Source: Octopus vulgaris (lineage: Eukaryota). Taken from it: a DNA stretch of 64,000 nucleotides. The DNA lies in NCBI GenBank assembly GCA_951406725.2, contig OX597833.1, forward strand, positions 28,086,001-28,150,000. The letters run 5' to 3'. The notes under the pieces were generated by a model. It saw nothing but the letters and a program-made list of their open reading frames with translations. It searched no databases and was not told the DNA's origin. The position numbers and the translations under genes were made by a program. Below, piece by piece: positions 27,360 to 32,272 of the stretch (positions are counted from its first letter, which is position 1; every line of letters starts with the position of its first letter).

Positions 27360-28606
27360 TATTATATGCATATATACATACATATATGTACATACCTACA
27401 TCTATATGTATATATACATTCATATATGCATATAATAATATAAATAATATATATATATATGCATATATACATACATATATGTACATACCTACCTCTATAT
27501 GTATATATACATGCATATATGGGTACAGGACATCAAAAAACGTTGAACACAATGAGAAACGAAAACACAAAAACAAAAACATGGAAATGAACTTTTTTTC
27601 AAACAACGAAAAAACAGAGTACAAGACATACAACATAAGGAATATTCCCCCTCTTCAGTTGTCCCTGTTTCGTCTACTCTGCGTTCGAAGGTAAGGACAA
27701 GACGTGACTTCGTTGAAACAATCCTTCCCGCAAAGCAAATTAAATAAAACTTGGGATTTTTGCGGAGGGGTAAAAGTGGTAACAAGAACAGGACAGTAAG
27801 AACAAAGAAGACAGTAAAAACAATACAAATAAAAACAATAAAAGATAGGACAAAGAGAATAACACAGTAAAAACAAACGATGAGGGCTGTTAAGCCAAGA
27901 CGACGGAAAAATAATTTTGAACGCATTGAGGAAATAGCTTATGAGAGGGACGGGATAAGCCGTCTTGTCTCGGTGAAGATAGCAGTTGGAAAGGTGGCTT
28001 CCCTCTGATCACGTGTCAGTGACGAGAGAGTCGAGGAGGAGGAGGAGGAAGAGGAAGAGTAAGAGATAGGGAGAGGAGAAGAATAGGGAAGGGTGGGAAA
28101 GAAAACCAGAAAGGATGAAGAACAAGAGAGGGAGAGATATAGTAGAGATAGAAGAGTGCGCATCATAATTATTAAGATAAAACTTACTTGGAAAAGGATG
28201 CGTGTCGTTCGATCATATAATAATATAAATAGTATATAAATATATGCATATATACATACGTATGTGTGCATACCTACCTCTATATGTATATATACATGCA
28301 TATATGGGTACAGAACATTAAAAAAACGTTGAACACAATGAGAAACGAAAACATAAAAACAAAAACATGGAAATGAACTTTTTTTCAAACAACGAAAAAA
28401 CAGAGTACAAGACATACAACACAAGGAATATTCCCCTTCTTCAGTTGTCCCTGTCTCGTCTACTCTGCGTTCGAAGGTAAGGACAAGACGCGACTTCGTT
28501 GAAACAATCCTTCCCGCAAAGCAAATTAAATAATATGCTTATATTTATGTATTATTTATATTATTATATGATCGAACGCCACGCATCCTTTTCCAAGTAA
28601 GTTTTA
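27360..28606 (-). mobile_element. Family A non-coding element: ~786-bp partial tandem plus terminal inverted segment (pLTR-like)
   Basis: 27430-27746 is repeated at 28216-28532; 28177-28230 is inverted at 28552-28606. Confidence 0.75.
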
Positions 28607-30742
28607 TATATATAGGACAGACTTCTTTCAACCTGAAAGTATTATCTCACATTACAATAGAGACGTAATACTGAAATAGTATAAGAGATAAGAAATAGCT
28701 CTGGGCTCGCAAGAAGTTGGAAATTTATGTGGCCCATGACACTGCATGGACCTTGGCTTTTGTATTTGACGACTGTTGCTTTAAGTATTTTATTTCGATT
28801 TTATGTATATATGTATGTATGTATGAGCCAATGAGGGAGACATCTACATGGTAGCTAGACCTGGTAGAAATAGCAGCCAAATCTCCCTCAAAACACCCTA
28901 CTGTCTTAATCCGATAACTCTGCCTATTATGTAGTTTGAATGAGAAACTTAACTAACGATTAAGATTATTAACCCCAAACTTGGACAGTGTTAAGTAGTG
29001 GAGATGTTTGGTGATTGTATGTGCTGCTAACTTTTGACTGTTTTTTTTTTCTCAGTAAGGATAATTGATTGATAACGAATCTTAACACTATATATATACA
29101 ACTTCAAGTGGAATCGGACATCATAAGAGAGTTAGAGAGAGGAAAGAAGAGAGACAGCATAGCGACGGTTTTGGCTGAGTGTCATCCTGTACTCCCCTTG
29201 TTGCTAGCGAAATGGTATGTGCCGGCTGTCTGAGCAAACACCTTGGTTAGACCTAAGACTTCTGAGAGGAATTGGCTAAACGGAAATTGTACGGAAGCCT
29301 GCTTGAGGAATTGTAGCTGTTATTCGAAGGTCTAACCATGACACACTCTGTATCATGCTGAATCTTTCTGAGGAATACACTGCCACTTACACTTTAAACT
29401 AAAAAAGTAGCAGTTCCAATGACCGAATAACTAGAGTGTGCGTCGTTGCGACCGACGGATACCCATTAAGAAGTGCAGGGTAATTTAATGTTTATAAAGA
29501 AGATTAAAATCGCAGCATATTATTTGACCATATTGGGGTCGGGACGACTAAGTAATTGTTCATCACACAGGTAGGTAGATAGATGTGTGCGTGTGTGTGT
29601 GCGTATGTGTGTGTGTGCGTGTATGTGTGTGCGCGTGTGTGTGTGCGTGTGCATTAACACACGCATGCTTATATATGTATATACACATGTAAGCATTAAA
29701 CACAAGCGAGTATAATTGGGTACACTTATATTGATGTATATGAGATGGATCAGTTTGAATAATATATGGATGTGAGTGCATGTGTTATGTCTATACGTAC
29801 TCTGAGTGTATGTGTGTGTGTATGTATATGTATGTATGCGTGTGTGTGTCTGCATCTATGTCTGGGTACATGTGTATGTTCACAGCCTCATACGTACGTA
29901 CTTTCTTATACAATACAAACACAAACACTTACACACGCACACACGCACAGACACTTACACACGCACACACACACTCACACACACACTCACACACACATAC
30001 TTCCAACTAACAGATGTGCACGTGTAAGTGTGTTCTCGATCCACAAAGCAGCCGCGTGCGTCTTTCACCTGTGCACGTGTACTGAAACACATCACATATG
30101 GCCGAGTATTGACGATAGCTTAGCGCCAACGGTGAAACAGTCACATGTCGGCCATTTTAACAAGATGGTTTTTCGGCTGTCTTCGTCTCTTCATTTATTA
30201 TTTCAAACCCTTAAGCACTTCTTTAATCTGGCGAACGTCGATATTCACCACAGGATCTTTGTCGTTTTCCCTTATATATCTTGTTAATAGTTTGTTATGG
30301 CATTGTTATTTTTTCGTTGTTAGTTCGTTATTTATTATTACATGTTGTTCCTGTGTTGTTTAGTTTTTTATTAGGTGTGACGTTTTTCGAAGTTAAACAA
30401 ACAAAATATTTTATAACCCCACCCCGATTCAATATAAGCCCCGATAACACCACCACTACCATCGCTCTCACCAACACCAACTCCATCAGCAACAAGAAAC
30501 AATTACAAGGCAATCAAATCCACCCGCAACAACGATGTCATCACTATCACCACCAACATCACCACCCCCACACCACCATCACTGCCAGCACCACCACCAC
30601 CATCATCACCAACACTATCATCACTAACACCACAACGGCCAACACCATAATTGCCTCCACCACCACCGTCGCCTTCACCAACGATTGCAAGAAAAAATCG
30701 TCATTCTTCTCTTCCTCTGTCTTTCTCTCTGATATTTTAAAC

Positions 30743-30903
30743 GCAGGCATGGACGGCTTTGTGGTAAGAAGTTTGCTTCCCAACCACATGGTTCCGGGTT
30801 CAGTCCCAATGCGTGGCACGTTGGGCATGTGTCATCTATTATAGCCTCAGGCCGACCAAAGCCTTGTCAGTGGATCTGGTAAAGGGAAACTCAAAGAAAC
30901 CTA
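30743..30903 (+). mobile_element. SINE 5' half (plus an inverted 5' fragment at approximately 30943-31018)
   Basis: Matches the head of 24267-24746. Confidence 0.8.
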
Positions 30904-31091
30904 TGTGTGTGTGCATGTGTGTGTGGCGGGGGGTCAGCCCGATGCTATAGTAGAAGGTGCCACGCTGTGAGACTGAATCCAGAACCATATGGTTGGGAAG
31001 CAAGCTTCTTACTACACACGCACACACACACACACACACACACACACACACACATATATATATATATATATATATATATATATATATATAT

Positions 31092-32272
31092 GTTCTGGTC
31101 TAACAACCCACCATGTTTGTTTTCGTTCGGTTTCCTTGTATGTCTCCACTGTTCTGTTTTTTGTTGGTACTTAATGGGAGCAATTGTCTTCGAAGACTCA
31201 TTTTGTCGTTCAGTGCTCGAAATTAGGAGTAGATAGACAGCCGACAACTGATGAAGGGTCTTTCTTTATGTTACTTGTCCTATTTTCCATTTTTTTCACT
31301 CGTTGTTTGCGCATTGGACTAATTTATTTTTGTAGTTCATGTTGTTTACTATTGGTTACGTCCTGTAACCATATATGCATATGTATATATATATATATAT
31401 ATATATATATATATATATATATATATATGTGTGTGTGTGTGTGTGTGTGTGTGTGTGTGTGTGTGTGTGTGTGTGTGTGTGTGTGTATATACATATGCAT
31501 ATATTATTTACATTATTATTTGATTGAACGCCACGCATCCATTTCCAAGTAAGTTTATCTTAATCTTTTTGATGCGACTCTATCCTATACTGTTTTCTCC
31601 CTCATCTTTTTCTCCCTTTCACCGTTTTCTATCTGTCTTTCTCTCTCTCTCTCTCTCTCTCTCTCTCTCCTTTCTCTTTTTCTCTCTCTCGTTGCTCACA
31701 CGTAACCATCGTCCATCTTTCTTTTCCTTACGTGATCATCTTTCTTTTCCTTCAGGACTGTCCTGGGGAGTAGACATATTCTACCTCTCTCTTCTATTTT
31801 TTCTCTTTTCAAAGAAAATATTTCTCCAGCGTTCGCTATTTTACCCTCGTTCTGGTAACCCTCCATGTTCGTTTTCGTCCGGTTTCCTTTTATGTCTGCA
31901 CTGTCTTGTTTTTGTTCCCAACTTTGACCCTCCATAAATCCAAAATTTTATTTTAGAATTGATGGGAGAAACTGTCTTTGAAGACTCATATTGTCGTTCA
32001 ATGATAGAAATGAGGAGTAGATAGACAGCCGGCAACTGATGAAGGGTCTTTCTTTATGTTACTTGTCCTGTTTTCAATTTGTTTCTCTCGTTGTTTGCGT
32101 ATTGAACTCATTTGTTTTCGTACTTCATGCTGTTTACTGTTCGTGACGTGCTGTACCCATATATGCATGTGTGTGTGTATGTATATATATATATATATAT
32201 ATATATATATACATATATTATTTATATTATTATTTGATTGAACACCACACATCCATTTCCAAGTAAGTTTAT
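31092..32272 (+). mobile_element. Family B non-coding element: ~788-bp diverged partial tandem, related to family A
   Basis: 31092-31380 is repeated at 31850-32168; shares GAACGCCACGCATCC..TTCCAAGTAAGTTT and GACAACTGANGAAGGG with family A. Confidence 0.75.

Follow-up and report, generated by a model that had tools for sequence, protein, structure and literature searches.

A split-core hammerhead fold, probably self-cleaving, in high-copy retrotransposons of Octopus vulgaris

The 64,000-nucleotide stretch of Octopus vulgaris DNA analysed here, called the window (assembly GCA_951406725.2, contig OX597833.1, positions 28,086,001 to 28,150,000 of the forward strand), is AT-rich and microsatellite-dense and holds an insertion of each of two repeat families, A and B (Table 1). 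Each insertion bears two copies of an RNA motif that the original prediction had described as a circularly permuted hammerhead variant. All four copies were confirmed at the predicted positions, with GAAG-N5-UH, the six-pair helix, GAGUAGA, CUGANGA, and RGGG present in each, and the proposed families of about 790 bp were borne out by unit spacings of 786 bases in A and 788 bases in B. We suggest that the motif is a hammerhead with a split core, carried by high-copy retrotransposons, which probably cuts itself after an NUH triplet and would hold the resulting ends for circular joining.

The fold was recognized in consensuses of 29 A and 30 B copies, in which CGAAA sits within the loop of helix I. 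The letters 3' of GAA pair with those 5' of the NUH triplet as helix III (A-CGCG with CGCG-U in A; A-UGAG with CUCA-U in B), and the strand 5' of GAAA forms Watson-Crick pairs upstream of the cut site as helix II (GAAGG/CCUUC in A; GAGCA/UGCUC in B). Helix III has 5-7 pairs and helix II 5-6. Three further helices complete the fold. P4 joins the run 3' of CUGANGA to a strand farther upstream. The P5 hairpin separates the P4 5' strand from G10.1 and, in A, B, and three of the families introduced below (C, F, and N), abuts both without an unpaired nucleotide (nt). P6 (4-8 pairs), in which the strand 3' of the helix II 5' strand pairs with the strand 5' of the helix I 3' strand, is a strut from helix III to the top ends of helices I and II. 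By sequence comparison, the order from 5' to 3' is P4 5' strand, P5 hairpin, helix II 5' strand (with G10.1), P6 5' strand, helix III 3' strand, H17, helix I 5' strand, a 1-5 nt linker, helix II 3' strand, GAAA, helix III 5' strand, P6 3' strand, helix I 3' strand, CUGANGA, and P4 3' strand. The family consensuses are thereby predicted to hold a complete hammerhead core in the non-circular order site, GAAA, CUGANGA (compare type SGC hammerheads), and since the partner of helix II is upstream, the predicted chain is opened between A9 and G10.1. When the A consensus is compared with that of B, ten double changes are spread across the six helices and no pair is broken within the shared lengths. 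We hold the predicted fold with high confidence.

The loop between helix III and P6, whose two strands hold GAAG and GAGUAGA, respectively, resembles a kink-turn; the canonical form, with which N, A/B/C, and F were compared by eye, has a stem, a 3-nt bulge, and tandem G-A pairs. It was also noticed that in family F (locus L286, 839-937) the helix II 3' strand can pair alternatively with the P4/P5 junction strand over 7 pairs, possibly as an on/off switch.

A core pattern spanning GAAA, GAGUAGA, and CUGANGA had 2,614 matches in the octopus genome (2.8 Gb, 227 contigs) and none when read backwards, and a 23-base 3'-end pattern had 2,346. DNA searches of the genome gave 3,614 candidates for family A and 1,833 for family B, 40 of each being scored. 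A descriptor that required the core letters together with the six helices, run on both strands of 834,592 bases (loci and window), returned 39 matches (32 unique), with none in the reversed control and none in 6,400 single-letter shuffles with CUGANGA kept. Unprompted, it also returned from the flanks two unrelated families, E and F. Pairing was counted in eight references, six of them representing families and two being single copies; an alignment of 19 copies with MAFFT, in which the site block was misaligned between A and B, was not used for these counts. Helices I, II, and III were each paired in 40/40 cells, with double changes at 5/5, 4/5, and 4/5 positions, respectively, and P4, P5, and P6 in 30/32, 32/32, and 32/32 cells, with double changes at 4/4 positions of P6. 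In slid registers, only 9-24 of 40 and 10-25 of 32 cells were paired. CUGANGA, GAAA, and NUH were present in all eight references, and G10.1-C11.1 and A15.1-U16.1 were invariant.

These counts uphold the hammerhead derivation that was originally proposed, given the core letters, the three helices, and the two invariant pairs in all references; the six-pair helix is helix I, and the NUH triplet is kept across families (GUC, AUA, AUC, GUA) as the mark of the predicted cut. The expectation that a standard search would miss the motif also held: there was no Rfam match at gathering score in the window, and the best 150 of 329 weak matches in seven loci contained no hammerhead, being chiefly microRNA models on simple repeats. 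The architecture had been drawn differently. GAAA, reported not to follow CUGANGA, lies in both B copies within the supposed loop; it was overlooked, together with helix III, because both A copies of the window have lost one A. With GAAA 3' of the cut site, and not 5' of it with a hairpin helix III, the type II topology does not apply. The proposed change of A15.1 to G is contradicted by the invariant A15.1-U16.1, "almost no helix III" by its 5-7 pairs, and the weak or displaced helix II by 5-6 pairs with the upstream partner. RGGG pairs as P4, with a strand other than that of helix II.

Table 1. Insertions of families A and B in the window, with the predicted parts of their motif copies (window positions)
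Feature	Position	Strand	Remarks
Family A insertion	27429..28533	-	full 786-base non-coding unit and partial-tandem upstream copy, 5'-truncated; TA-rich tract at end
Inverted piece at 5' end of family A insertion	28533..28607	+	3' end and short tail
Copy A1 of the rewired hammerhead	27647..27770	-	
A1 P4, 5' strand	27766..27770	-	
A1 P5 hairpin	27728..27765	-	
A1 helix II, 5' strand	27723..27727	-	
A1 P6, 5' strand	27715..27721	-	
A1 helix III, 3' strand	27702..27706	-	
A1 H17	27701	-	
A1 predicted cut	27700..27701	-	between 27701 and 27700, after GUC; by analogy with hammerheads
A1 helix I	27695..27700 / 27659..27664	-	
A1 helix II, 3' strand	27687..27691	-	
A1 GAA	27684..27686	-	
A1 GAGUAGA	27673..27679	-	
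A1 P6, 3' strand	27665..27671	-	
A1 CUGAAGA	27652..27658	-	
A1 P4, 3' strand	27647..27651	-	
Copy A2	28433..28533	-	predicted cut between 28487 and 28486
A2 GAA	28470..28472	-	one A short of GAAA
Family B insertion	31092..32279	+	5'-truncated upstream copy and full 788-base unit; (TA)n flanks
Copy B1	31171..31261	+	core letters intact
B1 AUU, with H17	31202	+	position of H17
B1 GAAA	31219..31222	+	
B1 CUGAUGA	31248..31254	+	
Copy B2	31926..32049	+	core letters intact
B2 AUA, with H17	31990	+	position of H17
B2 GAAA	32007..32010	+	
B2 CUGAUGA	32036..32042	+	
Short tail common to A and B, splice-donor-like GTAAG	31526..31553; 32240..32267; 28574..28601	+	
Short tail common to A and B, splice-donor-like GTAAG	28183..28210	-	
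Polypyrimidine-CAG acceptor-like site, unit B	31747..31755	+	3' of CT-rich tract

The four window copies are decayed insertions, probably inactive on their own. A1 is one A short of GAAA and has two of its five helix III pairs broken; A2 is 5'-truncated within the P5 loop and so lacks half of P5 along with the P4 5' strand. In B1, helices I and II and P6 are paired, helix III has one mismatch, and the P4 5' strand with most of P5 is deleted. In B2, P4, P6, and helices I and III are paired, P5 has one mismatch, and three of five helix II pairs, including 10.1-11.1, are broken. Three further partial A-type cores were found in the window, with CUGANGA at 1976 (-), 25749 (-), and 25809 (+).

Comparison of sequences showed the same predicted wiring in three settings: non-coding Penelope-like repeats of about 790-880 bases, 3' tails of Naiads, and the region behind the open reading frame (ORF) of a non-long terminal repeat (non-LTR) element encoding a reverse transcriptase (RT). 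Families A and B have the anatomy of non-autonomous Penelope-like elements, namely partial tandems, an inverted 5' piece (in A), a short tail, (TA)n targets, and 5' truncation, and no ORF was found in their units. The inverted 5' piece corresponds to the arrangement reported for Penelope-like elements (Craig 2021, PMC8557442). Family E (L181; 1,347 candidates, 99% identity, tandems 840-880 bases apart) shares the unit anatomy of A and B and likewise has no ORF. Putative donor-like and acceptor-like sites, assigned by sequence, are present in A, B, and E; a spliceosomal intron kept close to the 5' end is a trait of Penelope-like elements. A CACGTGA-like word was also observed 3' of the CT-rich tract in these otherwise diverged units (28009-28015 of the window; about 1237-1243 of L312), and it may be a promoter or branch-point element.

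Family F (L286; 2,552 candidates, 93-98% identity) has the motif behind a coding sequence. When the end of its ORF was used as bait, the motif was found downstream in 18/20 loci, about 30 nt 3' of the stop codon in the 17 loci listed. The ORF matched RVT_1 (E 4.4e-9) and by eye had a CCHC knuckle and a restriction-like endonuclease motif of the PD..E..K type; the atlas look-alikes of its C-terminus were unnamed eukaryotic proteins. We take it provisionally to be a HERO-like non-LTR element, HERO being a clade in which a CCHC knuckle and a restriction-like endonuclease come after the RT.

Family N, which shares with A and B the fold and not the letters, lies 3' of Naiad-like RT fragments in five loci of the octopus genome. 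A profile of these fragments collected 380 proteins, and an N-terminal GIY-YIG was present in 4 of the 8 long ones; Naiad ORFs have an N-terminal GIY-YIG and a C-terminal RT. A motif from the tail of a published octopus Naiad consensus had 270 exact matches in the genome. For other species, the evidence comes from published Naiad consensuses (Craig 2021 supplement), of which nine 3' ends were read by eye. Four of them had the full wiring (Naiad_Ovul, Naiad_Plae, and the two records preceding these; an acanthocephalan is included), and Naiad_Esco had a decayed or partial form. Snippets near three nematode records followed the usual order, not the split wiring. One locus came from a metagenome scan and two from a viral scan, none with the motif, and protein searches with short fragments gave no match. 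Two side observations concern related sequences. Upstream of a Naiad-tail fragment, L261 349-1142 contains frames resembling another Penelope-like protein with a GIY-YIG-like end (no Pfam match), and the window at 44948-45217 has weak tblastn matches to the Naiad-like GIY-YIG region (best E 1.7e-7), probably marking a decayed Penelope-like ORF by these matches.

Signs of cleavage were sought in the 5' ends of insertions, using 90 copies picked by their 3' end alone and aligned upstream. Sixteen of the 90 5' ends fell 0-25 nt 3' of the predicted cut, at 3.8 times the rate elsewhere, and a peak as extreme anywhere arose in 12/5,000 constant-rate simulations; 7 of the 16 were inverted joints. This pile-up fits a template ending at the cut with a few bases lost at the joint. 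One copy of family N, L102, begins exactly at the predicted cut behind (TA)n. In RNA reads of a relative, a fold-back joint at helix I was seen 72, 23, and 43 times in three runs; it probably reflects one transcribed inverted genomic copy and was not counted as evidence. We consider it quite likely that intact copies cleave.

A number of observations weigh against this interpretation. No 5' end out of 90 fell within 3 nt of the cut and the pile-up is centred near +14; two row pairs in the sample are not independent, and the pile-up could equally stem from the polymerase stalling or folding back at the structure. Over a family A copy, RNA reads of a relative (unstranded; about 6 in 100 read) covered both strands and had no end pile-up at the cut. 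None of the four window copies passed the full six-helix descriptor. The descriptor that set the registers itself requires pairing, which makes the pair counts partly built in, and the weight therefore rests on the controls and on the head-to-head count given below; furthermore, A, C, G, D, and B are related families. P5 is weak in E (4 pairs, 3 of them G-U), and by eye the kink-turn is textbook only in N, shifted or K-turn-like in A/B/C, and absent in F. In 25/50 A/B/C copies, the G-rich run 3' of CUGANGA is also pairable as helix II. Four of the nine Naiad 3' ends (Omin, Adux, 1_Skow, Dcar) lacked the motif, as did a metagenome Naiad-like tail (L320). Finally, a coding parent of A/B/C was not found, with no Naiad-like coding sequence upstream of their copies in the loci collected. 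As a separate observation on the L320 tail, its 1250-1500 segment has no CUGANGA and contains a GC-rich stretch of structured look.

The alternative that survives best, although unlikely, is a real fold that does not cut at a useful rate and serves as a structural signal for RT, RNA stability, or packaging. It is favoured by the 50/90 copies that run upstream past the predicted cut, by the empty 3-nt zone around it, by the RNA reads without an end pile-up, and by the lack of a tested precedent, in the literature examined, for opening the backbone at A9/G10.1. Such a role needs neither core letters nor the NUH rule, and is disfavoured because both, along with G10.1-C11.1 and A15.1-U16.1, are kept while the helices differ almost completely between families.

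It is less probable still that A, B, and C are ordinary type SGC hammerheads with an extra A after CUGANGA and with helix II formed by the downstream G run. A viroid hammerhead carries an additional A at this position (PMC3705267), and a helix II set off by one extra nt would have 4, 4, and 3 pairs in B, A, and C, respectively, 4 pairs being reached in 25/50 copies. It would, however, need one or two G-U pairs, whereas all five pairs with the upstream partner are Watson-Crick, three of them changed on both strands between A and B, and it leaves P4 and P5 unexplained. The two partners were counted head to head in copies with helices I and III. The upstream one was available in 22/23 E, 13/13 and 14/14 F, 11/13 N, and 32/50 A/B/C copies; a partner directly 3' of CUGANGA (within two nt), as in plain type SGC, in 0/23 E, 0/13 and 0/14 F, and 2/13 N. 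This count rules out the plain type SGC layout in E and F and comes close to doing so in N; in A/B/C it only speaks against it.

Pairing between tandem copies or between two molecules, as in the minimal Penelope hammerheads reported to act as dimers (PMC4209133), is very improbable. Copies are frequently in partial tandem, and nested-only folding of single copies recovered only parts of the model or other folds (z-scores -2.5 to +0.3). The folding program cannot represent crossing helices, hence its output was not taken as support for the split fold either; moreover, helix III, at a full 5-7 pairs, is not the minimal palindrome through which a hammerhead is forced to dimerize, single copies prevail in the loci, and the linker lengths suit one molecule. 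The originally predicted type II form, with GAAG standing for GAAA, nearly no helix III, and a weak helix II, is the least credible: GAAG does stand at a fixed distance, 10 nt, 5' of the cut in A, B, and C, but an inner GAAA with a 5-7 pair helix III exists in the loop, and GAAG is no core element because families E, F, and N share the fold without it.

The split-core hammerhead would then work as a monomeric self-cleaving ribozyme, cut after H17 of the NUH triplet. P4 and P5 would stack and span the A9/G10.1 gap in the backbone. Where helix III meets P6, a kink-turn or bulge would bend the strut back, so as to keep helices I and II side by side, and P6 would take the role of the usual loop-loop contact. 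Helices I and II would run parallel between the core and a second three-way junction, with helix III, the kink, and P6 forming the third path. One strand can trace such a frame only as a closed loop, therefore it must be opened somewhere: outside the core in type SGC and, as proposed here, between A9 and G10.1. Transcripts of tandem copies would be cut at every site, and the ends of the unit-length RNA would remain paired via P4, II, P6, and III (about 20-25 pairs). Sharing four helices, the cut ends would favour ligation, giving a circular template; reverse transcription primed at (TA)n and extending beyond one unit would yield the partial tandems. We put the circular template forward only tentatively. 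Equally short of probable is the wider proposal of a seventh natural hammerhead wiring, a closed three-path frame entered via the core, which would be the ribozyme missing from Naiads and a portable 3' module of Penelope-like and restriction-endonuclease non-LTR elements, holding the cut ends for the copying of circular RNA.

If it works, a ribozyme opened at A9/G10.1 would break the rule of unbreakable hammerhead blocks and provide a new entry point for engineering. It would also explain why descriptor and Rfam searches saw no hammerhead in Naiads (PMC8557442) and would raise the ribozyme count by thousands of sites per genome. The same predicted fold behind a non-LTR ORF suggests that distant classes of retrotransposon have either exchanged a 3' RNA module or converged. 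Families E (99% identity) and F (96-97%) are young and intact, which makes cleavage and the circle model testable.

Other features of the window were noted. A partial A-type head-to-head pair occupies 25712-25959, both arms being truncated immediately 3' of the predicted cut, and another partial A-type copy (1703-2012) starts at the helix II 3' strand. At 14227-15534, a unit of about 616 bases is repeated three times in tandem, each with a CUGAAGA (-) that fails the descriptor. A mariner-type element (25956-27253, inverted ends 25956-25997 and 27212-27253) adjoins the 3' end of a partial family A insertion; its 246-aa minus-strand frame (26201-26941) has what we take to be mariner-like transposase motifs, and a second, inverted mariner-type copy lies at about 48489-49901. 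Perfect inverted repeats were found at 32547-33220 (273-nt arms, 128-nt spacer) and 10821-11147 (163-nt arms, 1-nt spacer).

Among known systems, Naiads share with A and B the (TA)n targets, partial tandems, inverted 5' pieces, and short tail, but they carry an ORF, which families A/B/C/E do not. In the available parts of Craig 2021 (PMC8557442), no canonical hammerhead is reported in Naiads and eight are marked HHR_half_core with no structure given; Naiad_Ovul, whose tail has the split wiring, and Naiad_Esco are among those so marked. Minimal type I hammerheads of Penelope-like elements and non-LTR retrozymes also lie in a terminal repeat, including that of non-autonomous derivatives, and a cut-and-circle model was proposed for those of Penelope-like elements (PMC4209133; preprint 10.64898/2026.07.22.740005). 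The Penelope type I is nested and dimeric with a minimal helix III, in contrast to the three crossing core helices, full helix III, and three extra helices described here. Type II hammerheads with a loop I pseudoknot (Perreault 2011, PMC3088659) similarly use a Watson-Crick helix to keep I and II parallel, yet theirs is a circular permutation with GAAA 5' of the cut and a hairpin helix III, whereas GAAA is 3' of the cut in the octopus families. The CChMVd plus-strand hammerhead tolerates an extra A10 between A9 and G10.1 (PMC3705267); one nt is added there, while here the chain exits and re-enters via two helices. The literature searched contained no description of the split wiring, nor of such a ribozyme in Naiad or HERO elements, and no such variant is described in the parts consulted of Forgia 2023 (PMC10162972) and PMC13725137.

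Also comparable are the type SGC hammerheads (HRIMA-1 and variants; Eckert 2023, PMC10085705), which have the same I-to-II linker and strut helix and cleave in vitro. They were found by a metatranscriptome-based search, unlike the present motif from retrotransposons of an animal genome; a keyword search of the Eckert 2023 supplement, which would miss entries given by accession alone, found no Octopus, Metazoa, Mollusca, or Eukaryota in the part available. The two forms share the block order site, GAAA, CUGANGA, the short linker (1-5 nt here), all core letters, and an additional helix that connects helices I and II at their far ends (P6 here). In the octopus families, by contrast, a helix II strand precedes the other core parts, helix III is connected to the strut through each of its two strands, and the exit is made of P4/P5. 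Blocks are assumed uninterruptible in Eckert 2023, hence the six hammerhead orders of the published scheme (PMC10085705). Block C (helix I strand, CUGANGA, helix II strand) is accordingly unbroken in type SGC, and is split here between A9 and G10.1. Because it is type SGC-like and departs from type SGC in this one defining feature, the motif would represent a new variant of the hammerhead class.

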